From positions 49,724,001 to 49,788,000 of the forward strand of contig NC_043006.1 in NCBI RefSeq assembly GCF_006345805.1: 64,000 nucleotides of DNA, in the 5' to 3' direction. The stretch is from Octopus sinensis (lineage: Eukaryota). Of this stretch, positions 35,597 through 62,230 are shown one piece after another. A program made the translations under genes and the position numbers. Under the pieces are notes generated by a model, which was not told the DNA's origin, made no database searches, and saw only the letters and a program-made list of their open reading frames with translations. Positions within the stretch are counted from its first letter, which is position 1. The number at the start of each line of letters is the position of its first letter.

Positions 35597-37564
35597 TATA
35601 TATAGATATATATAATACAGTGGAGTATAAATTCGAGATATCCCCAAAACACATCGACGTTGTCATAGCCTTAGTTAATTTTATGTATTTTATCTTTTTT
35701 TATTGAACATCTTGTGATGTATACCACCAGTTTTAAGTGAATTTTAAGTACATCTGTGCGGGTTGTCTCTTTCTCTCTCGCTCTCTGTCTATCTATTTAA
35801 TTGTCTATCTATCTATCAATCTACCTACCTACCTACCTACCTACCTACGTACATACATACATACCTAACTACTTACCTATCTTTCCAACTGGCTAGCTAT
35901 GTATCTAGTCATCCCTCTGCCTGTATCTATGTATATATGTGTGGGACAGTATATATATATATATATTATCTTGACCTTTTTCGTTTTGCCAAATTTCTTG
36001 TGATTTTAAATCTTTAATATGGTCTTCTTTCAGAATATTATGTTGATCGTGTATAACTTTATTTTTCCAGTAACGGAAGTGAATCATGTCGACGCCTCAT
36101 TCTAAGTGCATGAAGGTTGAATGTTTCTGTAAATCTATCATTATACTTGTTATGCTTTCTTTAATTCTACACTCTTATTTTCTTCATAACTTCCCGCTTG
36201 ATTAAACAAATGTTTGTGTGTAAAGATAGCTGGAACTCTTTCTAGAGCTACTACCATTTATACAAGATAAATTAATTAATAGAGATATAAAATAGTTAAA
36301 AAACTTTTGTCTCATTTAAATTTCACCATAAATTATTTATAGATCTTAAGTTTCATCACTGAAAGCCTTAAATGTCACATTATGAAATTAGAGGCAATCA
36401 AATATTCTTTGGATTTCGTGCTGGGATTCACAGCTGTCACATCACCCTCTTAACATCTTCTTTTGGCATATAAGTCGGTGAAAGATAATATTCATCTCTA
36501 TTATTAGGTAGATTCAATATTTTATTTTCGTTTTTAGTAAGATTATAGTCACGTTGTACATTAGTATTTGTCACAGAATTCAATTATTAAATCAGTTATT
36601 TCATATGCTTATGGTTCTTTAATCACGTCGTTAGAAATCGTCTTAATATTACAAGGATTACTAATGTCATTAAATCGTGGTTTAAGCTTACTATTGCGTA
36701 CATATATATCTTATTTTCTTACTAATGTTGCTAAAATGAAATTGAAATATTGAATATACCTAACGATGTACAGGTATATACAAGTCTATGAATGAATTCT
36801 GCCGCATATAAAAACAATTTTTAAATCTCATTGACTAAATTTTATTTGCCCCAATATAAATATTAATAACTATTTTACTATAAATTATGATCAAAATACC
36901 ACATGCAACAGAAAATCTAATAACCAATATTATTACTGCAGCAAGAAATATAATTTTATACCATTTATAATAACCCAAGTTTCAAAAGTAATAAAAGTCC
37001 CTATGATATTTCAAATATTGATAATTTCCAATCTATATATACAATACATTTGTGCCTTTCTATAATTCAAATACTAAAGCAAGGAGGGAATATGCCGTCA
37101 TTCATCATAATATTTCATAGAAAAGTAATGGATGAAATGGAAAAGGAATATTACCTGTTGTAACGTTCCATTTGTAAGATCTATAAAAATGGAAATTGCA
37201 TACTTATTCTATAAAATTCTCGGCGACAATTTTCCGCCACAACCTAAAATTACATGAATTTGGTTCGCGTTGATAATATTGCTGTTTAATTCTATTAATG
37301 CTCATTATCTCTTTCTTCTGTTTCCATTGCTACCGTTTCTCATTTTAAACTTTCTTATTATACTACGCCTATTTTAGCATCTATTATAGTAAACGACAGT
37401 CATTTAACCTTATACAAGTATTATATTAATTCCAAGGAGACCAGCAATAACTGTCCCTCTGAATAGATTACTCGTAATCGTGTAGACTATAAATGGTAAC
37501 CGCTACAATGATATATTTATAATGTATACAATAGTATCATATTTATGATAGTACAAATAGAAAT

Positions 37565-39760
37565 TATGGTTTCAAATTTTGGCACAAGGACAGCAAGTTC
37601 AGGGGAGGAGGTAAGTCGATTACATCGACCCCAATGCTCAACTAGTACTTATTCTATTGACCCCGAAGGATGAAAGGCAAAGTCGACCTCAGCGGAATTT
37701 GAACTCAGAATGTAAAAACAGACAAACTACTTAGCAGCATTTTCTCCAGCATACTAACAATTCTACTAGCCCGCTGCTTTAGTACTAATAGTAATAATCC
37801 TTTCTACTAAAGGTACAAGGCCCGAAATTTGGGTAGAGGGGACTAATCGATTACATCGACCCTAGTACGCAACTGGTGCTTAATTTGTCGCCTCAAAAGG
37901 ATGAAAGGTAAAGTCGACTTCGGCGGAATTTGAACTCAGAACGTAAAGATGGACGAAATACTTATCTCTTTACTACCCACAGAAAGGGCAAACAAGGACA
38001 GAAACGGATTAAGTCGATATATATCGACCCCAGTGCGTAACTGGTACTTATTTAATCGACCCCAAAAGGATAAAAGGCAAAGTCGACTTCGGAGGAATTT
38101 GAACTCAGAACGTAGCGGCAGACGAAACACCGCTAAGCATTTCATCTGGTGAGTGCTAATAGTTCCTTCTCGAGCCATGCCAGGCTCATGAGGGCCGATA
38201 TCCTCCAGTTTCAGTGGCGTAGATATTCCCCACCTGGATGGGACGCCGCTCCGTCGCAGGATTACTCATTTTTGCCAGTTAAGTGGACTGAAGTAACGTG
38301 AAATGAAGTGTTTTGCTCAAGAACACAACACACCGCCCGGTCCAGGAATCGAAACCACAACCATACGACCATGAGTTCAACACCCTAACCACTAAGCCAC
38401 GCGCCTCCACGAGTACTAATAGTAATAATACTATAAATGATGGTTTCAAATTTTTGCAGAATCCCAGCAGTTTCGTGGGAGGGGGCAAGTCGATTACATG
38501 AACATGAGTGCTCAACCAGTACTCATTTTATTGACCCGAAAGGATGAAATGTAAAGTTGATCTCGGAAGAATTTGAACTCAAAATGTAACTGGCAATGAC
38601 CAGCAATTTCAGGGGATGAGATAGGTCGATTACAACGATCCCAATGTTCAACTGATACTTATTTCATCGATCCGAAAGGATGAAAGGCGGAATTTGAACT
38701 CAGAATGCTTGATGGACAAAATGCTACTTAGCAATTTTCCCGGTGTATCAATGATTCCACCAGCTTGCCGCATTGCAACTGTAACTATATTAGTTTCGAA
38801 GTTTGGCACAACGCCATCAATTTCAGGAGAGGGAATAAGTCGATTACATCACCCACCCCCCGCCAATACTTAACTGGTACTTATTTTATCGACTCCAAAG
38901 TTGACCTCGGTAAAATTTGAACAGCTGTAATAAAATTGATAATGATAACAAGTTGGGTTGTAGTAACGATTGTAATAATCCTTCTACTGGAGGCACAAGG
39001 TCTCATATTTGTGGAGTTGGGACTTGTAGATTATATCGACCCCAGCGTTTCACTGGTACTCATTTTATCGACCTCGAAAGGATGAAAAGCAAAGTCGACC
39101 TCGGCGAAATTTGGATTCAGAACGTAGCGACGTTCTGAAATACAGCTAAGCATTTCGTCCAGCGCGCTAACGATTCTTCCAGCTCACCGCCTTAGTAACG
39201 ATTATAATAATGATAATAGTTACAATATTAATAATAGAAGTACAAACAATCAAAAGAAAAACGTAGCATAGCTATTTTTTGTACTATTTGTAGAGTAATG
39301 AGAATAAAAGCAAATAATTCTAATAATAAAATTTCTTCTTATATCAATAATAGGAATTTTCAAGGCGGCGAGCTGGCAGAAACGTTAGCACGCCGGGCGA
39401 AATGCTTAGCGGTATTTCGTCTGCCGCTACGTTCTGAGTTCAAATTCCACCAAGGTCGACTTTGCCTTTCATCCTTTCGGGGTCGATTAAATAAGTACCA
39501 GTTACGCCCTGGGGTCGATATATATCGACTTAATCCGTGTGCCTGTCTTTGTTTGTCTTCTCTGTGTTTAGCCCCTTGTGGGTAGTAAAGAGATAAGTAT
39601 TTCGTCTGCCGCTAATTTCTGAATTCAAATTCCACCGAGGTCGACTTTGCCTTTCATCCTTTCGGAGTTGATAAATTAGTACCAGTGGCATACTGGGGTG
39701 GATCTAATCGACTGGCCCCCCTCCCCCAAAATTTGGGACCTTGTGCCTAGAGTAGAAATA
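37565..39760. mobile_element. Dense cluster of about ten full or partial SINEs, partly nested
   Basis: Repeated GAAAGGATGAAAGGCAAAGTCGACCTCGGCGGAATTTGAACTCAG on minus (37565-39195) and plus (39361-39760). One different SINE at 38164-38410 has TSD GAGT(G/A)CTAATAGT. Confidence 0.85.
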
Positions 39761-40386
39761 AATAATAATAATTTTCTACCTCTGCCTTTTTCTTTTCTAA
39801 ACCGTGATACAAATTTATGTAATTGGAGCCTGAGAGAAAATTGGCCTCTTAATAGTCACTGCAACTTAATAATCCCTTCTAATTTGCCAACTACAACGTA
39901 ATAATGAAGCTTATATAATTACTATTTAAAACCCATAATTCTTTTATATTCTGTATTCGTTTCAATTCAAATTTGAAACTAAGATATTAAATACACTTCC
40001 ATAAATATTCTGAAAATACCCTAAAGAGCGCTACATCTCTTGGTAAACATATCTTCAATCTGAAAACAAAGATATTTTCCAACTTCTCTTAACATGGAAC
40101 CAATGATAGCCTTAATTCACAAATAAAGAATATATATATATATATATATATATATTCATAATTAATCAATATAGGGTGGCAAAAGATTTTGTAGAATTTT
40201 TTTGCCACCAGCGGCCTAGTGGGAAAAAATTAAATAGTCATAGACCATTTTAAGTTCAACATCACAATCAAGGAACGGCCATAATAGGCCATTCACCCAC
40301 TAGAAATAACAGCCAAAAGCTTAAACCGCAAAATAACATCAATTCCGTAAACCAGGAGAAAATTAAAAAACATTTACCCTGTAATT

Positions 40387-40487
40387 TCTTATACGATGCA
40401 CCGTTTCATCTACTGTTTAATGGTAAACTAACCTGATTAAATAAATCAAGCCAATCCACACATAGGCTCTTAGATTCATCAGTAAGA
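40387..40487 (-). ncRNA. Type I hammerhead ribozyme, long helix II (array unit 1)
   Basis: TCTTA-CTGATGA-ATCTA...TAGAT-GAAAC-GGTGCATC-GTA-TAAGA. Confidence 0.85.
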
Positions 40488-40875
40488 AATAGCCAAGTCG
40501 GAACAGATATTTTTCACGAGCATTCCCGTCCCTGCCTCGGCAATATCTGACCTAAAATTTTCAAATCATCGCACTCGCGCCAAATTTATCGGCAGCATAT
40601 ATAATATAAGCCGCCGATTCCATTACGGAATTAACCAGAAAATTCATAATTAATCAATATAGGGTGGCAAAATATTTTGTAGAATTTTTTTGCCACCAGC
40701 GGCCTAGTGGGAAAAAATTAAATAGTCATAGACCATTTTTAAGTTCAACATCACAATCAAGGAACGGCCATAATAGGCCATTCACCCACTAGAAATAACA
40801 GCCAAAAGCTTAAACCGCAAAATAACATCAATTCCGTAAACCAGGAGAAAATTAAAAAACATTTACCCTGTAATT

Positions 40876-40976
40876 TCTTATACGATGCACCGTTTCATCT
40901 ACTGTTTAATGGTAAACTAACCTGATTAAATTAAATCAAGCCAATCCACCATAGGCTCTTAGATTCATCAGTAAGA
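40876..40976 (-). ncRNA. Type I hammerhead ribozyme, long helix II (array unit 2)
   Basis: Same motif as unit 1; all core nucleotides intact. Confidence 0.88.
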
Positions 40977-41363
40977 AATAGCCAAGTCGGAACAGATATT
41001 TTTCACGAGGCATTCCCGTCCCTGCCTCGGCAATATCTGACCTAAAATTTTCAAATCATCGCACTCGCGCCAAATTTATCGGCAGCAAATAAATATAAGC
41101 CGCCGATTCCATTACGGAATTAACCAGAAAATTCATAATTAATCAATATAGGGTGGCAAAATATTTTGTAGAATTTTTTTGCCACCAGCGGCCTAGTGGG
41201 AAAAAATTAAATAGTCATAGACCATTTTTAAGTTCAACATCACAATCAAGGAACGGCCATAATAGGCCATTCACCCACTAGAAATAACAGCCAAAAGCTT
41301 AAACCGCAAAATAACATCAATTCCGTAAACCAGGAGAAAATAAAAAACATTTAGCCTGTAATT

Positions 41364-41464
41364 TCTTAATACGATGCACCGTTTCATCTACTGTTTAAGG
41401 GTAAACTACCTGATTAAATTAAATCAAGCCAATCCACCATAGGCCCTTAGATTCATCAGTAAGA
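41364..41464 (-). ncRNA. Type I hammerhead ribozyme (array unit 3)
   Basis: Same motif, with 1-nt indels in stem I and helix II. Confidence 0.75.
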
Positions 41465-41820
41465 AATAGCCAAGTCGGAACAGATATTTTTCACGAGGCA
41501 TTCCCGTCCCTGCCTCGGCAATATCTGACCTAAAATTTTCAAATCATAGCATCGCACTCGCGATGTTGAACTTAAAAATGGTCTATGACTATTTAATTTT
41601 TTCCACTAGCCGCTGGTGGCAAAAAAATTCTACAAAATTTTTGCCACCCTATATTGATTAATTATGAATTTTCTGATTAATTCCGTAATGGAATCGGCGG
41701 CTTATATTATTTGCTGCCGATAAATTTGGCGCGAGTGGCGATGATTGAAAATTTTAGGTCAGATATTGCCGAGGCGGACGGGAATGCCTCGTGAAAAATA
41801 TCTGTTCCGACTTGGCTATT

Positions 41821-41920
41821 TCTTACTGATGAATCTAAGGGCCTATGGTGGATTGGCTTGATTTAATTTAATCAGGTTAGTTTACCATTAAACAGTGATG
41901 AAACGGTGCATCGTATAAGA
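41821..41920 (+). ncRNA. Type I hammerhead ribozyme (inverted unit)
   Basis: TCTTACTGATGAATC...GATGAAACGGTGCATCGTATAAGA read directly on plus. Confidence 0.85.
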
Positions 41921-42047
41921 CATTTACAGGGTAATGTTTTTTAATTTTCTCCTGGTTTACGGAATTGATGTTATTTTGCGGTTTAAGCTTTTGGCTGTTA
42001 TTTCTAGTGGGTGAATGGCCTATTATGGCCGTTCCTTGATTGTGATG

Positions 42048-42114
<67 letters not shown>

Positions 42115-42496
42115 GTGTGCATGAACCTTTTTTGTGCGAGCGTGTATGCGGGTATGTATATTTTTCGGCGAATGTGTGGGTGAGCATGTGTGTTTCAAGT
42201 GAGGGTGGATGAGTATATATTTATAGACGCATGTACGTGAGTTTGCGGGCGCGAATGTGTAGGTATGGACATGTGTGTTTACGCGAATATTATGAACATT
42301 TTACTCCCTTACCTTTAATCCCTACCCTCACTCTTTTGTCTTAATAACGGTCAATCACACAGTAATTTCCCTTCGTTTAACGGTCATTTACATAGCACTT
42401 TTACGATGGCCGGATAACGGAAGAGATGGCGACGTGGGTTTTATCATGACTACCGAATAATTGCCACATATTATAGTTACAGAATATATCTTTACA

Positions 42497-42537
<41 letters not shown>

Positions 42538-42538
42538 T

Positions 42539-42575
<37 letters not shown>

Positions 42576-42841
42576 GTATTATAAATACACAGAGTAGCAG
42601 AAGGTCGTGCTAAGATACAAGACGTGTTAGAAAAAATACGAGTCAAACATGCTCTTATCACATGAAATTAATAGTAGCGCAAAAAAATCGTATATTGTGT
42701 ATATAAAATGATATTTATCGCTCGCCAGATGGAGTTTTTGTTTGTTGATCATACCATTACGGAACAATACACTATATATTTATGTATACATACATACACA
42801 CACACATATACACGCACATACACACACATACAAACACACGC

Positions 42842-42902
<61 letters not shown>

Positions 42903-43074
42903 TATATATATTTTACCGTTTTCATCACAACAGTCCGACGAACGGAACGCGAAACTTTGAGTAGTAGTCTTGTGATAATTTTTCAGTTTTAATAAAAGCA
43001 TATTGCTCTACCCACTGTATTCGAATATCGTTTTTTCACCTTGTTTTGCACTTACGTGCACACCTGTGTTGTAC

Positions 43075-43129
<55 letters not shown>

Positions 43130-43158
43130 CATACCTACATATACATACATATATAATA

Positions 43159-43201
<43 letters not shown>

Positions 43202-43229
43202 TGTGTGTGTGTTATAATAGTGATAAATG

Positions 43230-43900
43230 TGAAAGTGAATGTTAGTGTGTCAGTGTGTCACATTTTTCAACTTTACTCCTCCGACCCACTCTCTCACTAT
43301 TCAATGACACTTCTACTATTCCCCGTGCTTTACCCCTCTCTCGCTAGTTAATGACGCTCCTATTATTCCTTATGCTTTACCCCACTCTTTCCCACTATCC
43401 AATGACTCTTCTACTGTTCTTCATTCTTGGTTTTTTCTTAATCCTAACATTTTGAAAAAATATTTCTCTAAATATTATAACTATTTCCAAACGTAATTTC
43501 CAAAATAAACATTTTGAAAAAATCTTTCTCTAAATATCAGTATCAAGTAATTGAACCACAACACGTGCTTCATGACGTTCGGAACTGAAATACGTATTGA
43601 ACTCACTCTCTCATACAATATTACTTTTCATAGCTCTCTGCCATAAAAACGTTGGATACTTAGTATTTTTTCAGATATTAATAAAATATGTCGGATCTAT
43701 TTTCATGCCGTCGGCCGTCGGAGTTATGGAAACTTAGCGCACTCCGACTGCATGAAAACAGATTCGACTAATATTATTACCTTAAAAATATTTAAAAATA
43801 CTAAATTTCAAATATTTTTGTGGTCAAATACGTTTCGAGCAATTCTAAACCTTAATTGCACTTTTAAATAGTGTTTAGCGACAGTAGTGTAATTTTCCTT
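43230..43900 (+). mobile_element. Non-coding Helitron-associated fragment
   Basis: Inverted homology to 53100-53520 and 53950-54000, which lie upstream of the Helitron Rep remnant. Confidence 0.55.
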
Positions 43901-44065
43901 CAAACTACGAAATGGAGTTTAGATACGTACTAGCTACTACAAATAATTGGTTGTACGAAAAGTAAGGCTCTACGTACATCAAAATGTCTTTAAATTAAGT
44001 GGTAACAGAAAAATTATCGTTGAACTTTTAAAAGGTAAGTTTATTGTTGCCTACGGCCAGTTATA

Positions 44066-44345
44066 TCAGATGTTGCTACACATCGCTGGTCACAATGCAC
44101 TTCGCATTGTTTTAGCCTTCAAATGACGCCACCCCACTGGCTAAGCGAGCAGGCCAACAGAAGAAAGAGTGAAAGAAAGTTGTGGCGAAAGAGTACAGCA
44201 GGGATCGCCACCACCCCCTGCCGGAGCATCGTGGAGCTTTAGGTGTTTTCACTCAATAAACACTCACAATGCCTGGTCTGGGAATCGAAACCGTGATCCT
44301 ACGACCGCGAGTCCGCTACTCTAACAACTGGGCCATTGCGCCTCC
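44066..44345 (-). mobile_element. tRNA-derived SINE (same head as 18981-19300, different tail)
   Basis: GGAGGCGCAATGGCCCAGTTGTTAG...GGTTTCGATTCCCAGACC. Confidence 0.85.
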
Positions 44346-44580
44346 ATATATATATATATATATATATATTAGTCAATTTAGGGTAGCAAAAAATTTATCG
44401 CTACCAGCGGCCTAGTGGAAAAGAGAAAATAGTCAAAGACTAAATATATAAATATAACAATTTAGGAGTGACCCTTAACAAGCCATTCGTCCACCAGAAA
44501 GAGCAGCCATAACTCACACCGCCAAGTAGTAGTGATTCAGAAATTAGGTGAAAATTTAAAAACATTTACCCTAATTCAAC

Positions 44581-44678
44581 TTTTAGACGATGCATCGTTT
44601 CTGTGTTATTAATGATTAAATTAGCTTAATTAAATTAAATTAAGCTAATCTACCATAGGTCACACTTCATCAGTAAAA
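44581..44678 (-). ncRNA. Type I hammerhead ribozyme in pLTR (second copy at 45040-45135 lacks one A of GAAA)
   Basis: TTTTA-CTGATGA-AGTGT...ACACA-GAAAC-GATGCATC-GTC-TAAAA; perfect palindrome ACGATGCATCGT; GUC triplet. Confidence 0.85.
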
Positions 44679-45319
44679 AACCTGGGAGAGACAAATATAC
44701 ACGAGGCGTCTGTATCGATGCCTCCGGAATATCTGTCTTAAAATTTTCAAGACGACGTATTCGCGCAAACTTATCAGCAGTAAATCTAAACTGCCTATTC
44801 AATCTCAGAATTATTCAGAAAATTATCAATTAGTCAATTAGGGTAGCAAAAAATTTATCGCTACCAGCGGCCTAGTGGAAAAGAGAAAATAGTCAAAGAC
44901 TAAATATATAAATATAACAATTTAGGAGTGACCCTTAACAGGCCTTCGTCCACCAGAAAGAGCAGCCATAACTCACACCGCAAAGTAGTAGTAATTCAGA
45001 AAAATTAGGTGAAAATTTAAAAACATTACCTAATTCAACTTTTAGACGATGCATCGTTCTGTGTTATTAATGATAAATTAAGCTTAATTAAATTAATTAA
45101 GCTAATCTACCATAGGTCACACTTCATCAGTAAAAAAACCTGGGAGAGACAAATATACACGAGGCGTCTGTATCGATGCCTCCGGAATATCTGTCTTAAA
45201 ATTTTCAAGACCGACGTATTCGCGCCAAACTTATCAGCAGTAAATATAAACTGCCGATTCAATCTCAGAATTATTCAGAAAATTATCAATAGTTTAGGTA
45301 GCAGGTTTCTCCCCAGGTT

Positions 45320-45412
45320 TTTTACTGATGAGTGTGACCTATGGTAGATTAGCTAATTTAATTTAATTAAGCTAATTAATCATTAATAACAGAAACGATG
45401 CATCGTCTAAAA
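45320..45412 (+). ncRNA. Type I hammerhead ribozyme immediately upstream of the PLE coding region
   Basis: TTTTACTGATGAG...GAAACGATGCATCGTCTAAAA. Confidence 0.8.
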
Positions 45413-45455
45413 GTTGAATTAGGGTAAATGTTTTTAAATTTTCACCTAATTTCTG

Positions 45456-47478
45456 ATGTAATTAAGCGTATGAGATGGAAGGTTTCTTTTTGACACAGAA
45501 GCGAACACCAAGGAAAACATTTGCTATCGGATAAAATCCAAAAAAATTCCCTCCTAGGATTAAAGGCTTGGAAGATTTCGAAGCCGACCTGCTGAAGATC
45601 ATGAGCAAAATAAAGTTTCGTAAGTCTTTTAACAATTTCCAACATAAATTGAAAAAAGATATGATCATATAAAAAGCTCCAAAGAAAAAGCACTTTTTTC
45701 GGATAAAACCAAGAACTTATACCTGGTAGATAACAGCAAATACACACAACTCTTACACAACAGCATCATTAATAATTATACTAAGGCTAGGGCACCGACA
45801 TATAACGAAATTAATAAAGAAGTAGCGTCATCGCCGCTAAACTTAAATTAGATAAAAAAATAGAAACCCTCCCCAAAAAGAGGCCTTTATTACTATTAAA
45901 GACCACAAAGAAAACTTCCTTTCCAACCCTAAATGTAGGCTTTCAACCCAGCCAAGTCAGAACTAGGGATTATTAGCAAAGAATTTTAGATAAAATAAAT
46001 ACGAAAATTAAGACCGATACTAGGCTAGTGCAATGGTCCAATAGTATAGAAGTCGTAGACTGGTTTAAAGCTATTAAAATAAGAAAAAGCGAGGTTTACA
46101 CAATTCGATATTGTTGATTTTTATGCCTCTATCTCTAAAGAACTCTAGATAAAGCCCTAATCTTCGCTAGTGACTTCATAGAAATTAGTACCAATGATAA
46201 GGATATAATCTTCTGCTAGAAAGACATTACTTTTCAGTGAGAATGCAAAGTGGGTAAAAAACACCGACACGGAGGGCGCTTTCGACGTGAGCATGGGTTC
46301 ATATGATGGGGCAGGCATCTGTGATCTAATTGGACTCTTTCTCCTAGATACCTTCGTGTAAGACATTCCCTAACGTACATTTCGCCATCTACAAAGATGA
46401 TGCCCTCGCCTTAACAGCTAATACAAATGGACCAGCACAAGATCGTTTTAGGAGGAAGGATTTATCCAGTTAATGAAACACTTCGGACTTAGTATAACTA
46501 TAGACACTAACCTGACGGTTGTAATTTCTTAGACGTTTCCTTAGATCTTAATAATAATATTTATAAGCCTTATAGGAAGCCCAATGATAGACTAAGTTAT
46601 ATTAATGTAGGTTCATGCCATCCCCCTATAGTATTCAAAAATTTAGTTAAAAATATTAGTAAGAGATTTCTAGCCTCTCATCTAATGAGAGACATCTTCA
46701 ATAGCGTTGCCCCAGTTTATAATAAAGCTTTAAAAGTAGTGGTTTTTAGCGAAAAAATAAAATATACACCTATCACAGCCCAACAATAAGGAAAAGGAAT
46801 AATAGAAATAGGAAGGTCATCTGGTTTACGCCGCCCCCTACTCACCCGAGGTGGCCTTCAATATAGGTAAATATTTCCTAGCACTGATAGATAGACATTT
46901 TCCAGTTAACCATGCTTATAGGAAACTCTTTAATAGACAACAATTTAAAAATTAGTTTTAGTTCAACTACCAATTTAAAAACATAATCATCATAACATAC
47001 AAAAAACAAAGAAGAAAACAGCTGTTCATGCAGGAATAAAGAATTGTGCCCGCTAAATGGAGCTTGCATGTCCAAGACCATCATATATGAAGCTACCGTA
47101 AACTCTATAACCACTAAAGACCACGTTTCGACGAAGAAATACGTGGGCCTGACAGAGGGTAATTTCAAGGCCAGGTTCAATAACCACACTTGAGCTTTAG
47201 GCACTGGAACAAAGAAAAGCGACACAATTATCCAATCATATTTGGTCTTTAAGAGATAAAGGTGTCGATTATAACATACAATGGAAGATTTTGGCCAATG
47301 TAAGCCCTATACTAACGGCAGCGGAAGGTGCGGTTTATGCGACATGGAGAGATGGCTTATCTGGAAAAGCAGCTTAGACCCTACCACATGTCTAAATACA
47401 AGGACAGAGCTTTTCGGATCATGCCCACATGTGACTAAATTCTGTTACGTTTTTTGGTCCCCTAAAGAAAACGGATAG
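45456..47478 (+). pseudogene. Frameshifted PLE reverse transcriptase plus C-terminal GIY-YIG endonuclease (Naiad-type)
   Basis: IKRMRWK, ITIKDHKENFLSNPKCRL, QFDIVDFYASIS, FDVSMGSYDGAGIC, YKDDAL, NFLDV, PYRKPND, SCHPP, CSCRNKELCPLNGAC, IIYEA...YVGLTEGNFKARFNNH, CGLCDME, LNTRTELFGSCPH. Confidence 0.92.
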
Positions 47479-47827
47479 AACATGCTTTCTGTGTTGTCCC
47501 AAAAGATTTTATATATTTTTATATGTTTTATATATTTTTATGTATTTTTATATAATTTTATGACGAAAAATGCGAGCGATGTATAAGTACGCAGGCAAAG
47601 CAGAGTTATAACAGAGTAATTTCCCTTCATTTTTAACGGTATTTTTTCATAACGTTTTCAAATAGCCAGATAACCGCGAAGAGATGGTGTTGTGGATTTC
47701 CACTTCGGCATCTGAAATCAGAGTTTTATCTTGACTACCGAGTAATGTAACATATTGTATAGATAAATTTCCTCTATTTACATAATATTGAGGTCTCTTT
47801 CTTTCTTTTGTTATCTTACCGTTTTAT

Positions 47828-47917
<90 letters not shown>

Positions 47918-47977
47918 CTATAATATATATTATATATATATAATATATATATACATACATATATATATTTAAACTCT

Positions 47978-48265
47978 GTAATATAATATGTGACAGTTAT
48001 TAATTATTCGGCTGCCATAATAAGAGTCCAAGTCTCGGATGTCGGGGCGGAAAACTGCTCCAGCATCTCGCCAGTTATCGAGGCAATCAAAAAAATGCTA
48101 TGAAAATGACCGATAAACAAAGGTTTTTTCCCCTCATTTAACGGTCATTTTCATAGCCTTTCTTGATTTCCTCGGTAACTGACGAGATGCCGGAGCAATT
48201 TTCCGGCCCGGCATCCGAAACTCGGAGTCTTATTATGGCAACCGAATAATTGTCACATATGTTAC
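47978..48265. repeat. ~290-bp imperfect palindrome (inverted pLTR pair); related degraded copies at 47605-47757 and 42345-42482
   Basis: Arms ATATGTGACA...GAAAATGACCG and CGGTCATTTTC...TGTCACATAT. Confidence 0.85.
48174..48234 (+). ncRNA. Type I hammerhead ribozyme, GC-rich helix II
   Basis: GGTAA-CTGACGA-GATGCCGG...CCGGCATC-C-GAAAC-TCGGA-GTC-TTATT; predicted cut after 48229. Confidence 0.82.
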
Positions 48266-48317
48266 CATTACTATTACTATTAATATGCATGCATACATAC
48301 ATACATACATACATACA

Positions 48318-48400
<83 letters not shown>

Positions 48401-50689: not shown

Positions 50690-50922
50690 ACCTATTTCTT
50701 TACTACCCACAAGGGGCTAAACACAGAGAGGACAAACAAGGACAGACAAACGAATTAAGTCGATTATATCGACCCCAGTGCGTAACTGGTACTTATTTAA
50801 TCGACCCCGAAAGGATGAAAGGCAAAGTCGACCTCGGCGGAAGTTGAACTCAGAACGTAGCGGCAGACGAAATACTGCTAAGCATTTCGCCCGGCGTGCT
50901 AACGATTTTGCCAGCTCGCCGT
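50690..50922 (-). mobile_element. Young Meta-core SINE at the truncated end of the Helitron remnant
   Basis: Near-identical to 39361-39598. Confidence 0.85.
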
Positions 50923-50924
50923 GA

Positions 50925-53060
50925 GTCCAAAGCCAATATATGCACGTTGTTTCTAGGACCAAACAGGGCTTCCGTTATCTCAGTCCACTTTGGGCTGGTT
51001 GTCATAGTGATGAAGTAGTCTGGCTTTCCAAACTCTCTCACCAGAGCCATTCCAGCTTGGAAATACTCCCTGTAAAACCGAAGAGAACCAATATGTGATG
51101 GCGGAAAAATGATTTTAGACCCTACGTCATTCATGTCACCATTTGCAATAGCATCCAGAAGGCCCTGGTACTTTTCAGCCTTAAGTTGTTTCTGATGAGT
51201 TCTCAGGAAGTGTAATCGATCTTGCTCTATCTTTGCATATTGATCTACTGCCTATTGTTACATCAGACGTCTACTTTTCATTATGCCATTGAACTCGTCC
51301 TTTCTTACTTGAAGCCGATAAGAATAAGAGTCACACTCAGTGATGTTTTTGCTTCGGTCATTGTTTTTCAAGAACACATTCCAGCCAATATCCCCATAGG
51401 GAAACAGAAGTATATAATGAAGAGGGTCAGAGCTTCTATGGATTTGACTAATGTAGTCTAACTTCCTATTACTCTCTCTGTACTGAATAATATCATCCGT
51501 AGGTTTAATGTTTGGCTTATTGGTATCATCTCCCTCCATGATCGCAACAACCTCTGATGCAGTCGGTTGGTTATAGATTCTCTAATGTGATCCAGCAGGA
51601 ATAAACCGTTTGTCATGACTTATAATAATATCACCGGTAAAACATTTTCCTGTTGCAGAGTATTCCTTATTTATATTAATCGCCTGTTTAAAACTTTTGA
51701 CATATGGATTGTGCATATGCAGTACTCTCTTCAAATCTAGCAGGATGTTCTAATTAAGGTCATTATCAGCTCCTCGATGTCAACCTGTTTCTCATCTCAT
51801 TTTCAGTGTCAACGAAATATAGCTGTGCGTAGACTGCTAGTAGGAAACTTCCTATGCGGTGGTACACCTTTCCTTGAATCTTGAAAGTAGGCATAAAAGT
51901 GCTACCACCCTGTGGTTCAACTGGTGGATTATCCAGTCCAAGTGAAGCCATAGCCAGTAAATTATTGTAGTCACGAATTTTGTTCAGAAGCATTTGACCG
52001 CTTAGATTAACATCATAATACTTAGTTATTAATTCTGGGGGCTTTTTTATCTGAGGAACTTTGTCATTGCTAACTTTTCCTTTGTCACAGCAGAGGGTAA
52101 TTTTCTCAGCAACCCAGAGGTAAGCTTTCCAGTAAGGGCATGTTCTGTTAAAAATGTTTCCACAGTTGTGCAACATAAGGCTGGGTTTCGTTCTTCCTCA
52201 TGAAAATCTGCTACATCAACTTTCATAGCCATTCTCTCAGTGTCAGCTGACGAAATCTCGATTGGTATCGTGCCTGGTTGTTTGCTTGTCGCTGCTGAAT
52301 TTTTGGCAGCGATGTGCTTTCCCTAGAGCAGTGCTTTTCAAACTTTTTGCTGGAGCGGAACCCCAAGGAAACATTCCACTGGCTCGAAGAACCCCTGTGC
52401 AATAATTTAATAGTCTTATGCACACATATCTGCACAGGAGAATTAAAAATTACTGCCGATTTTAGCAGTTTTGTAACTTCTTGCGGAACCTCTGGACTGT
52501 ACTGGCGGAACCCTAGGTTGAAAACCACTGCCCTAGAGTCTTGTTTCCTCAGCCGATCAGTATTCCTCCGTGCTTCTGTGGTGTTTCCATTGCACGGCTT
52601 TTCTCTGTTCTCAGCCGATTCACATTCCTCCCTACTTCTGTTTTTCTGGTCTTTCCATTGCACGAATTTCCCGTGTTACCATCCGATTCACAGTCCTCCG
52701 TGCTTCTGAATCTTCTGGTCTTTCCATTGCACAAGCTTCCTGTCACCTCAGCCAATCTGCATTTCTCGGTGCTTCTGTCTCTTCTGGTGTTTCCATTGCT
52801 GAAATGTCTTGCATTCTCCTTCGCTTTATTTCGAGACACTGAGAAGAGCTACGTCCTTGTCTGTTTTTTTCAATTAACGCCCGTTGGCTTTGCTCAGCGA
52901 TCTTATGTGAACGAGAATTTTTTCGGGACAGGTTGTTGCCCTTTTTTTCTGGGCATAGTGTACTGATGAAAGCGTGATTATTTATGACAATTATACAGTG
53001 AAAGTTTTGAGACGATTCAGCTAGTATTTGAGCTAATTTCTCTGAACGAGAAGTTTTCAC
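50925..53060 (-). pseudogene. Helitron Rep/helicase N-terminal region, decayed
   Basis: CPYWKA...CCDKGKV, IRDYNNLLAMASLG, PTFKIQGKVYHRIGS, YAQLYFVD, DPLHYILLFPYG, FPPSHIGSLRF...FGKPDYFITMTTSPKWTEI (Rep motif 1). Imperfect ~50-70-bp coding repeats at 52560-52800. Confidence 0.92.
52329..52530. mobile_element. hAT (Charlie-like) MITE inserted in the Helitron
   Basis: Termini CAGTGCTTTTCAA / TTGAAAACCACTG; exact 8-bp TSD CCCTAGAG at 52321-52328 and 52531-52538. Confidence 0.92.
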
Positions 53061-58023: not shown

Positions 58024-61000
58024 TTACTGGCGAGTCCGTAGGTGACCGATAAGACCAATTCTTGCTTGAAAAGATCGGTCGCAGTGCGGACATCTAGTAC
58101 CGGAAGGGAGAGTCGCACGTGGTTGTTGTTGGCGCTCCTTCTGTCGTCGTCTTTTCTCCTCCAGCTCTGCAGACCTTTTCGACTCGAAAGTCGCCGTTCC
58201 CTCATGGATGGTGGTTTTCCAGAGTGGTCTGTTTTTTTGCCGTATCCTCCCAGTTAGTGAAGTCGATGTCACACTTTTTGAGGTTCGTTTTCAGGGAGTC
58301 CTTGTAGCGTTTCTTCTGGCCTCCTTTTGTACGCTTGCCGTCTTTGAGTTGAGAGTAGATCTGTTTGGGAAGTCGTTCGTCAGTCATTCTAACCACGTGG
58401 CCGCTCCATCTTAGTTGGCCTTTGATGACATAGGCTTCGATGCTGGTCATTTTTGCTTCTTGTAGCACGCTGACGTTAGTTCTTCTGTCTTCCCAGCTGA
58501 TGTTAAGGATCTTCCGAAGACAGCGTTGGTGAAATTTCTCGAGCGTTTTCAGGTGGTGATTATACGGAGTCCAGGTTTCGGATGTGTAAAGGAGGGTTGG
58601 AATAATGACTGCCCTGTACACCATGAGTTTGGTTTCGGTTCGGATGTCCCGATCAGCAAAAACTCTTGTTCAAAGCTTGCCGAAAGCTGTTCCTGCACAC
58701 TTCAGACGGTGTTGGATTTCATCGCTGAGGTCTACCTTTGCTGACAGATAGCTCCCAAGGTAGCAGAAATGGTTCACATTTTCCAGTGGAATTCCTTCGA
58801 GTTGAATCGATGGCGGGTTGTCAACACGGGCATTGGGAGGAGGTTGGTAGAGTAAGTGAGTCTTCTTGATGTTGATGCTCAGTCCAAGTTTAGTATATGC
58901 ATGATGAAAAGCATTTAGGATCTGTTGGAGGTGATCCTCTCTGTAAGCTGCTACACTGTTGTCGTCGGCATATTGGAACTCTAGCAAGCTTCGCGCCATT
59001 GTCTTTGACGTACTTTTGAGGCGAGCGAGGTTGAAAAGCTTGCCGTCCATTCTGTACGAGATCTCGATGCCAGGTGGAAGGTCATCTCGTATGATGTGCA
59101 ACACTGTCGCGATAAAGATGGTAAAGAGAGTTGGCGCTATCACGCAGCCTTGCTTTACTCCGGAGGTGACTTTAAAGGGCTCAGAACTGCCTCTGTCGGT
59201 CTGGACTCTGGCGTGCATATTGTCGTGGAGGAGTTTGAGGATCCGGATGAACTTATCTGGGCATCCATACTGGGCGAGAATATCCCAGAGGAGCTCTCGC
59301 GAGACACGATCAAAGACTTTGGATAGGTCGATAAAGGCCAAATAGAGCGGTTGGTGTTGCTCACGACATTTTTCTTGTAACTGTCGCAGCGTGAAGATCA
59401 TGTCGGTTGTGCTTCGTGATGGCCTAAAGCCGGTCTGCGTCTCAGGAAGGATCCTCTCTGACAGCATTTTGAGGCGGTTGTTCAGGATGCGTTCAAGAAT
59501 CTTCCCAGCAGTTGCTAATAAGGAAATACCCCGGTAATTTCCACACTCAGAACGATCGCCCTTTCGTTTGTAAATGGTAATGATGTTAGCATCCCTGAAG
59601 TCGGATGGTACAACTTCATTTGTCCAGATTTTGACCAAGAGTTGGTGGAGCTGGTGTTGGACAAAATCACATCCCAGTTTGTTTATCTCAGCTGGGATTC
59701 CGTCAGAACCCGCGGCTTTGTTGTTCTTCGTCGCTGTGATAGCAATTTTGACCTCTTCGAGGGATGGAATTCGAGCGAGAGAGTAATCCTTGACCTCTTT
59801 AGGAATCATGTGAAGTATGCTTTTGTCGATGGTAGCCTTGTGATTGAGGAGGCCATCGAAGTGTTCTCTCCATCTGTCTCCTATTTCTGTGTTGCTTTTC
59901 AGGATGGTCGCTCCGTCTTTACTCTTCAGAGGAGCCTGTCCATGTGTGGAAGGTCCGTATATTTCTTTCGTGGTTTTGAAGAACCCTCTGGTGTCGTTTA
60001 CATCTGCTAACTGCTGGATTTCACGAGATTTTTGTCTCCACCACTGGTTCTTCAGGGTACGGGTTGTCCTTTGAACTGCAGTTTTGTACTTTTTGAAAGA
60101 CTCTCGTTTAATGGTAGACTTTGGATCATTCTGTGAGCTGATGAAAGCTTTCCGTTTTTGGTCGATCAGTTCTTTGAGAGATTCATCATTGTCGTCGAAC
60201 CAGTCCTGGTCTTTCCTTTTCTTGCGACCGATGGTTTCTTCGCAAGCGGTGATGATGGTTTCTTTCAGCTGGTTCCAATTTTCTTCGACGAGATGATTTG
60301 GAGTCTTATTTTGAAGATTGACCTGTAGGCGCTGCTAGAAAGCGACACGAGTTTTTGGGTCTTGCAGTGCTTCGATGTTGAATTTCTTTACTCTGCTTTC
60401 CTTGCTGTGATATTTCACTTTTGGTCGGAGTTTGATTTTCATGGTGGAGGCGATGAGGCGATGATCTGTCCAGCACTCATCTGCTCCAGTGGCGGCTCTG
60501 GTGAGCAACACATCTTGCTGGTCTCGGGATCTCACGATGATATAGTCGATGAGATGCCATTTTTTAGATCTTGGATGCTGCCATGAGACCTTATATCGAT
60601 TCTTCTTGCGAAAAAGGGTGTTGGTTATTACCAAGTTACGTTCAGCACATTTGGTGAGTAGCAGAGTTCCATTGGCATTGACTTTTCCCACTCCTTCCGT
60701 TCCGATGGTTCCTGTCCAGAGTTCACGATCTCTCCCAACTCTGGCGTTGAAATCTCCCAGGAGAATGATCTTGTCGTTCTTTGGGACGGTAGAGAGAATG
60801 CTATCAAGCTGGCTGTAAAACTCTTCCTTGACTAAATCCTCCGCGTCAAGGGTGGGAGCATACGCGCTGATGATAGTTGCGTGCTGACTTTTGACAAGCT
60901 GGATTCGGAGGGTCATGAGTGGTGCGGACATTCCGATGGGCTGCTCTGTCAGTTTGGATAGGATGGTGTTTCGTATTGCAAGACCCACACCATGGATCCG

Positions 61001-61432
61001 TTGATGGTCGGGATCGTAACCTTTCCAGAAAAAGGTGTATTGACCGCCTTCTTCTCTCAGCCGGTCTTCTCCGGCTCTCCGGGTTTCACTGAGAGCTTCG
61101 ATGTCAAAATTGAATCGATGGGGTTCCAGGGCGATGATTGCAGTTCGCCTTTCGGGTCTGTCTGAGTTGGTGTTATCTATGAGAGTCCTGATATTCCAGG
61201 TCCCGAATTTCAGCGTTGCGTATCTTGATCTTGATTTTCGACCGCATGATGGTGATCCCTCTGGACGCGGTTTTCCAGACAGGCTTGGGATGAAGCAGAC
61301 TATGTTTAGGGCACCTTTTCTAGCTCCTTCCCAATTCAGGGTGAGCAGAGTGGATCCTAAACAGGGCTGCTCAGTCGTGGATACTGCTGCCGAACATCTT
61401 TCCTGCTTCTTCCGAAAGATAGAGCGACTGAA
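58024..61432 (-). pseudogene. RTE AP-endonuclease/reverse transcriptase with C-terminal C2H2 finger; two stops and one frameshift
   Basis: GTWNIRTL, ALSETR, AYAPT, GDFNARVG, WTDH, GNYRGISLL, GVKQGCVIAP, QYADD, LRWSGHVVRM, CPHC...GLIGHLR. TAG at 60335-60337, TGA at 58670-58672, extra A in an A-run near 58235. Confidence 0.93.
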
Positions 61433-61855: not shown

Positions 61856-62230
61856 AGTGATAGAGTAAGAGTAAAGAGAGTTAAGAGTCGCACAATAGTC
61901 AGGGAATAATTTTTATAATAAAGTAAACAGAGTGTGCGTATAAAGGGTTGAACAGACAGAACACAACAAGGAGAAAAAATTAGACAAAGGCAGAGCCAAC
62001 GGGAAACTAGACGAAAACTTAACGGACGGGAAATATAGGCAAAGACATGAAACATGAGTTTCGCGGCTGAGTTCTCCTCGTCAGTCAAAGACCCAAAATA
62101 TGATAGTGGTTTCGCGCCATTACCATTGAGACCACTCAATCTTGGAGACGTGTGTGCTGTTATTAAGCTACTGGGCAAAAGCTAGCGAACTAAAACAGAT
62201 ACAAACATCACACACACACACAAACACACA

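Follow-up and report, generated by a model that had tools for sequence, protein, structure and literature searches.

Selection on the pairing of a long, two-part hammerhead helix II in two sister repeat families of Octopus sinensis

The closest described relatives of the repeats analysed here are the metazoan non-LTR (long terminal repeat) retrozymes of coral, mussel and axolotl, which according to the available text of PMC7229834 are short, low-GC tandem repeats without an open reading frame (ORF), carry one type I hammerhead ribozyme per unit within a strongly self-paired monomer and occur alongside Penelope-like elements (PLEs), and whose motifs, in the mussel, lack the canonical contacts between loops 1 and 2; a Penelope origin has been proposed for them (available text of 10.64898/2026.07.22.740005). 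We describe two sister repeat families, A and B, which share these features and lie in a 64,000-nt stretch of the Octopus sinensis genome (contig NC_043006.1, positions 49,724,001 to 49,788,000; hereafter the window), the 2.72-Gb genome around which is rich in microsatellites. They differ from the described retrozymes in unit length (460–490 bp vs. 170–400 nt in invertebrates), in a helix II of 65–68 nt rather than 4–5 bp and in a candidate pseudoknot, and whilst expression and circles are on record for the metazoan retrozymes, they are predicted for A and B.

Three further systems are comparable, each as far as the available text of its source describes it. The minimal PLE hammerheads (PMC4209133) resemble A and B in type I topology, a palindromic helix III, inverted partial copies, tail ends and a helix II whose base carries an extra or variable nucleotide; unlike them, A and B have a helix III of 4 bp plus a tetraloop, a helix II of ~23–24 bp in two parts (6–8 bp in PMC4209133) and no ORF between motifs. 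In pseudoknot-stabilised hammerheads (PMC3088659), a base-paired contact of helices I and II replaces the loop–loop contact, as predicted for A and B, although the tested cases are type II motifs with 4–6 bp, whereas our candidate arises from an internal loop and has 3–4 bp (5–6 in deeper subfamilies). The Poseidon element PAc of the green anole (PMC11167929) likewise has two fixed ends downstream of its hammerhead and AT-rich targets, but is autonomous, with a short hammerhead and closer start sites; the ends of A and B lie ~95–100 nt apart.

The host elements are therefore of a known kind, and the novelty is the architecture of helix II, the sense-strand fold of which is under selection, as substitution patterns support well. 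On balance we think it probable that A and B are ORF-less, non-autonomous, Penelope-derived retrozymes in which the long helix II is a selected structural element of the sense strand.

Anatomy of families A and B

Tandem Repeats Finder (TRF) delimited one array of 2.9 units of 489 bp and another of two units of 460 bp, each followed by an inverted partial copy. As the original prediction held for the 40–42 and 44–45 kb regions, the two are homologous yet diverged, sharing 71.5% identity across 453 columns. Their features are as follows (window positions; strand in brackets):

40154–41555 (−): family A tandem array, 2.9 × 489 bp; the left end is the long 3′ end and adjoins a TA repeat
40392–40482 (−): family A hammerhead copy 1, from the core scan
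40881–40971 (−): family A hammerhead copy 2, CUGAUGA at 40971–40965 and GAAAC at 40896–40892
40881 (−): predicted cut of family A copy 2, after GUA
40909–40952 (−): distal helix II of family A copy 2, 19 bp with six G.U, loop UAAUUU at 40933–40928
40954–40956 (−): GCC in the helix II internal loop of A, putative strand of the candidate pseudoknot
40981–40983 (−): GGC 5′ of stem I of A, putative partner in the candidate pseudoknot
41370–41459 (−): family A hammerhead copy 3, with small indels and one changed arm position
41560–42047 (+): inverted, 5′-truncated arm of family A, which stops at the short 3′ end, then a TA repeat
41826–41915 (+): family A hammerhead of the inverted arm, from the core scan
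44368–45290 (−): family B tandem array, two units of ~460 bp; the long 3′ end adjoins a TA repeat
44586–44673 (−): family B hammerhead copy 1, distal helix 44656–44612 with a 1-nt bulge
44586 (−): predicted cut of family B copy 1, after GUC
44683–44680 with 44660–44657 (−): candidate pseudoknot of family B copy 1, AGGU with ACCU
45045–45130 (−): family B hammerhead copy 2, core short of one A (mutation or assembly error)
45300–45450 (+): inverted partial family B unit with a hammerhead at 45325–45407, joined to a Penelope-like element

Our core scan found in both repeats a type I hammerhead with a complete core (CUGANGA / GAAA / NUH), three helices and an open helix I. Helix II, predicted at ~70 nt, is indeed long, measuring 68 nt in A and 65 nt in B, and consists of a 4–5-bp base, an internal loop, a distal helix of 19 bp (~18 predicted) and the 6-nt loop UAAUUU in both families; helix III has 4 bp and a palindromic UGCA loop. 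The covariation expected in stem I is present as C-G in one family and U-A in the other. All four basal pairs of helix II changed on both sides (UCUA/UAGA in A, GUGU/ACAC in B), as predicted, and the pair adjoining the core (10.1–11.1 in hammerhead position numbering) is A-U in window A, whilst window B has A.A there, then G-C. The distal helix of family B is mostly Watson–Crick paired, with two G.U pairs and a 1-nt bulge, which we regard as real because the same core recurs at 17 of 117 sites (see below).

Pairing favours the ribozyme strand, as had been claimed: the A motif folds at −32.9 kcal/mol in sense (z −4.2) and −19.6 in antisense (z −2.3), the B motif at −28.7 (z −3.9) and −22.9 kcal/mol (z −2.75). 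The fold constrained to the hammerhead lies 1.8 (A) and 3.3 kcal/mol (B) above the minimum free energy. Whole A monomers fold with z −8.2 in sense and −3.7 in antisense, whole B monomers about equally on both strands (−4.2 and −5.0).

The original prediction set these motifs against minimal PLE hammerheads, in which helix III is absent or 1–2 bp and helix II has 6–8 bp. A and B are not themselves minimal: their helix III consists of 4 bp and a UGCA loop, and among 42 representatives it covaries and is 98.2% paired. The suggested comparison with Rfam gave no hammerhead family for the window motifs: the whole window had no match at the gathering threshold, and none of the 37 matches at E ≤ 10 over 40100–48400 was to a hammerhead.

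Selection on helix II pairing

To follow helix II across the clade we collapsed 188 loci into 117 insertion sites whose core is intact, 87 of which were in the ungapped 19-bp register; the 30 set aside comprised four with indels (the window included), three with a longer helix and 23 of deeper subfamilies. Eighty sites with sufficient flank entered a tree built from the flanks, helix II left out, on which 18 distal pairs were scored by parsimony; the sites were preselected for intact cores and the tips of the tree are poorly resolved. Of 50 changes, all 22 on internal branches gave a standard pair (null mean 14.4; reached in 0 of 20,000 permutations), and on terminal branches a standard pair was left in 19 of 28. 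Watson–Crick pairs became G.U 18 times and A.C never, and G.U became Watson–Crick 17 times. In 42 hand-picked representatives, deeper subfamilies included, 91.8% of cells pair (82.2% when shuffled, ≤44% in slid controls), the covariation score is 0.428 vs. 0.242, and 7 of 19 distal pairs show two-sided changes. The predicted selection on sense-strand RNA structure thus found support both in this deeper alignment, which had been named as the check, and in the tree-based test.

Its wobble-rich version was narrower. Six G.U pairs do occur in the copy at 40881–40971, but this six-wobble state is rare: only 6 of the 80 sites have G.U at pair 6, and in one subfamily just one of 18 pairs is a wobble. 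G.U richness therefore describes the window copy of A and is not required: pairing is selected, G.U content is not.

The 18:0 ratio of Watson–Crick changes to G.U and to A.C also bears on whether the repeats are inert satellite DNA with a dead ribozyme, their hairpin kept at the DNA level by inverted-repeat conversion. A DNA-level process would be strand-symmetric, the copies are dispersed and young (98–100% identity among top matches) with retrotransposition-type ends, and the core is invariant apart from N7 in the 42 representatives, although these were picked for intact cores. The near-equal folding of the B monomer on both strands is what such a satellite would show, yet we consider this explanation very improbable.

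Adenosine-to-inosine editing fixed by reverse transcription, rather than selection, could in principle generate a strand-specific excess of G.U. A>G accounts for 15 of the 18 changes from Watson–Crick to G.U and exceeds T>C on internal branches (p 0.037; no excess on terminal branches, p 0.36), and A>G sites prefer a 5′ U (15 of 32 columns vs. 10.6 expected; terminal 15 of 26 vs. 8.5). ADAR action would also deplete 5′ G, which is at its expected level (8 of 32 vs. 7.8), and the 17 restorations of G.U to Watson–Crick (9 G>A, 8 U>C), the two-sided changes and the complete lack of A.C need selection. As editing cannot explain the restorations, it is at most a contributing source of mutations, and as the main cause of the excess it is improbable.

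Several observations weigh against a strictly selected helix. Counted as distinct types, the changes to G.U and A.C number 9 and 0, events on a poorly resolved tree not being independent; mismatches are tolerated in successful subfamilies (23 of 80 sites have A.A at pair 5, and 5 of 80 have A.C at pair 12); and helix II opens with a non-standard pair in 17 of 42 representatives, among them the A.A of window B. The distal helix may, then, be a tolerated insertion of no specific role, its pairing kept merely to avoid misfolding of the ribozyme or circular RNA. Helix II spacers run from 10 to 100 nt across families, the arms vary freely in sequence and G.U content, and the rest of the unit covaries as well, with two-sided changes in 13 of 59 consensus pairs; within the clade, however, helix II length is nearly fixed, mostly at 58–68 nt, and both its apex and the CC of its internal loop are conserved beyond their neighbours. 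We rate a tolerated insertion as a serious but less probable explanation than a selected structural element.

Internal loop, apex and helix III

The life cycle that we infer for A and B would begin with multimeric transcripts cut by the hammerhead into ~460–490-nt monomers, which would be circularised and then copied back into TA repeats by a Penelope-type reverse transcriptase (RT)/endonuclease from a helper element. The role of the long helix II is most likely structural. Within such a ribozyme the distal helix would close the internal loop at about the height of the canonical loop 2 and fold the insert away from the core, (G/A)CC in the internal loop would pair with GG(C/U) beside stem I and so replace the usual loop–loop contact, and the apex would bind a protein.

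We give the candidate 3–4-bp pseudoknot between the internal loop and the 5′ flank of stem I about an even chance. The internal-loop CC is present at 116 of 117 sites, and 110 of these 116 have GG 8–12 nt to the 5′ side of the core; in two of the remaining six the flank is absent. The next pair beyond GG/CC is C-G at 68 sites, U-A at 38, U.G at three and a mismatch at one, the U.G standing in a basal copy of the B lineage as the third pair of the candidate. A pseudoknot contact between the regions of helix II and helix I has precedent in the available text of PMC3088659. Against it, the covariation is essentially one two-step event, the pairs flanking the candidate show no covariation (p 0.32 and 0.88), an unbiased scan, in which the candidate was out of register, returned 31 covarying helices, 18 of them of 3 bp and mostly mutually incompatible, and such complementarity is lacking in 25 other long-helix clusters (p 0.76). 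The earlier idea of a tertiary-contact module thus has moderate support for the internal loop, which does not extend to the distal helix.

The apex UUUAAUUUAAU is the best conserved segment, at 0.996 over 22 rows (0.67–0.95 elsewhere), and this near-invariance suggests sequence-specific binding, so that it is probably a protein-binding site. Eight of the 22 rows came from a pattern that requires the loop, which counts against the figure; unconstrained sites keep the apex in 17 of 20 cases.

An RT-binding module had been proposed for this domain, and a stronger form would make the apex or internal loop the main binding or start site of the Penelope RT/endonuclease. The apex is AU-rich as well as near-invariant, the long form also occurs in hammerheads downstream of endonuclease remnants, and the anole Penelope hammerhead is protein-assisted (available text of PMC11167929). 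The fixed 3′ ends of the copies, however, map to a conserved domain of their own, at about 135 and 230 nt 3′ of the cut. RT probably starts at these two ends and is unlikely to do so in helix II. Apex sequences are also not alike between families, and PAc, the one Penelope element studied in vitro, tolerates the loss of most of stem II from its template: anole templates from +20 still insert (stem II from +1, cut at +26; another clade; PMC11167929, available text). The RT-binding proposal was not supported, and a main RT site in helix II seems to us unlikely.

In 7 of 7 variants helix III remains self-complementary over 12 bp, and of 17 clade loci picked up by searches that did not demand its UGCA loop, all 17 have it. 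As a hairpin it is weak (−1.7 to +1.1 kcal/mol) compared with the duplex (−14.5 to −18.9 kcal/mol); being far more stable swapped between neighbouring units, it makes dimer-assisted cleavage likely (compare the available text of PMC6765202). A counterweight to our reading of A and B as a whole is that only one of nine retrozyme dimers was cleaved in vitro (10.64898/2026.07.22.740005, available text).

Two other roles were considered, of which the first was not supported and the second was rejected. AAUAAA or AUUAAA occurs 17–26 nt 5′ of the predicted cut in family A (40903–40910, −) and in 7 of 25 long-helix clusters. As a poly(A) signal within helix II, AWUAAA 10–30 nt before the cut (7 of 25 clusters) compares with 1.3 in base shuffles, 4 of 25 in antisense and 0–3 for each permuted hexamer; the clusters are not independent, and the signal is absent from window B and the deeper subfamilies. 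A palindromic, kissing apex as a general rule was found in 2 of 18 families (2.3 expected), 7 of 25 being skipped for shallow or large-loop folds.

Element identity and long helix II across the genome

DNA searches with the two families gave 769 and 1,517 first-look candidates, with 98–100% identity among the best 40. Patterns that exclude the window variants found 422, 444 and 788 further motifs (0, 0 and 60 in controls), and a clade-wide pattern with no loop constraint found 2,757 intact motifs (control 0); distant subfamilies share 67–82% identity along most of the unit. Head-to-tail arrays that carry a truncated arm in inverted orientation make up the clade loci; their TA-targeted units measure ~460–490 bp and have no ORF. 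The 168 outward 3′ ends concentrate at profile positions 350–389 (93 ends) and 450–463 (66 ends), TA-rich DNA lies beyond 148 of them, and 49 of 54 two-armed sites combine one long with one short fixed end. A "tail" insertion pattern at one end is described for Penelope in the available text of PMC8557442 and PMC11167929, and partial tandems, an inverted 5′-truncated arm, a tail at one end and TA targets, as in Penelope-like insertion, are all found here.

An endonuclease remnant in sense upstream was seen at 0 of 189 clade-search loci (flanks mostly 1–1.5 kb), whilst four had an endonuclease match on the other strand or downstream, and the RT/endonuclease search of the first 119 loci was negative, the window itself excepted. 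Because of the tandem arrays, the Penelope insertion pattern and the absence of a sense endonuclease remnant, A and B fit non-LTR retrozymes, and they are likely non-coding, non-autonomous passengers of Penelope-type transposons rather than the LTRs of a coding element. Our search for an autonomous partner with homologous ends found none, which counts against this assignment; a profile search of 110 non-clade loci, a small share of the genome's families, gave no homology to Penelope-type LTRs (pLTRs), neighbouring clade copies excepted. A search for sequencing runs gave 20, all as contigs and none on record as RNA; in three of four that were compared with the repeats the unit-to-unit joint occurs, and tandem DNA yields the joint too.

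Two further features belong to the neighbouring coding element:

45448–47829 (+): Penelope-like element (RT, Cys linker, GIY-YIG), 5′-truncated, frameshifted and young, 96–97% identical to other copies
Near 47670–47735: hammerhead-like motif of this element, which is not homologous to A/B

We take this coding element to be Neptune-like. Its family is young (8,600 candidates, open frames to 717 aa), and its protein matches GIY-YIG and RT clusters in the Atlas, with no family in Pfam and no relevant match among solved structures. As a source of A and B it was rejected, its pLTR and ends showing no homology to theirs. The inverted B arm meets it at a 4-nt microhomology (45440–45455). This junction may stem from RT switching templates between the two RNAs, in which case the helper would be named, or from an insertion that came later and deleted part of the target. 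In the hammerhead-like motif of the element, which has a two-part helix II, the core reads CCGAAGA (U4 to C), and the family has two fixed 3′ ends ~65–70 nt apart. A hammerhead with an 8-bp helix II at 48179–48229 (+) resembles this family's motif and has an inverted partial copy at 48002–48094; a degraded 3′ end of the family adjoins a TA repeat at 42370–42480 (+).

Elsewhere in the window we observed a hammerhead-like short core with a weak stem I (62051–62084, −), a short interspersed repeat with many copies in both orientations (37500–39750, 50690–50920), open frames of 365 and 554 aa at 58200–61430 (−), presumably a LINE-type (long interspersed nuclear element) endonuclease and RT by their motifs, and open frames at 50850–52200 (−) whose motifs resemble a Helitron Rep/helicase.

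Across the genome, minimal hammerheads with helix II spacers of 10–35, 45–70 and 71–100 nt number 5,021, 15,026 and 3,219 (controls 38, 54 and 54; one helix III class; 36–44 nt not counted), so that the long form is the majority (18,245 at 45–100 nt), although the counts are dominated by few families. Sixty loci sampled from the 45–70 class (the first 20 matches plus 40 hand-picked) held 71 matches in 25 clusters, of which 18 fold as deep hairpins and three, like two further families, have an endonuclease remnant upstream; motifs with 71–100-nt spacers are spread over many families, and a weak stem I is common among old long-helix copies. The recurrence of the long arm in many unrelated families of the genome marks it, as far as sequence can tell, as a trait of Penelope-type hammerheads throughout this lineage and not an oddity of two sisters. 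Long-helix hammerheads also occur in tandem units of ~2.1 kb, which contain RT remnants, and of ~1.1 kb (L209, L213); these units are possible intermediates between full elements and retrozymes.

Helix II had been called atypical, which holds against published lengths, where 6–8 bp is already long (4–8 bp in the available text of PMC4209133, PMC13725137 and PMC7761336), but within this genome the long form dominates. PMC8557442, in its available text, used 7–17-nt spacers and gives eight Naiad cases with core halves 35–50 nt apart. The literature that we searched held no description of a long helix II of this kind, though Lunse et al. 2017, outside that search, may cover it; ribozymes are not mentioned in the available text of the octopus repeat annotation (PMC13282606). 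A bolder and tentative reading is that the long two-part helix II, with over 18,000 motifs in this one genome, is widespread but overlooked, Rfam and short-spacer descriptors alike having missed it, and that in A and B its internal loop pseudoknots with stem I whilst its apex docks a protein that gates cleavage.

The role of hammerheads in PLEs and retrozymes is called unresolved in the available text of PMC8557442 and PMC7761336, and our counts suggest that short-spacer descriptors (7–17 nt, PMC8557442) miss most such motifs in this animal. In the A/B clade, compensatory changes accumulate step by step from one young subfamily to the next, a ladder of natural variants for probing helix II. 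If the bolder reading is true, invertebrate hammerhead censuses would underestimate the numbers several-fold, and long-armed hammerheads would be present in some of the Penelope clades that are reported to lack the motif.

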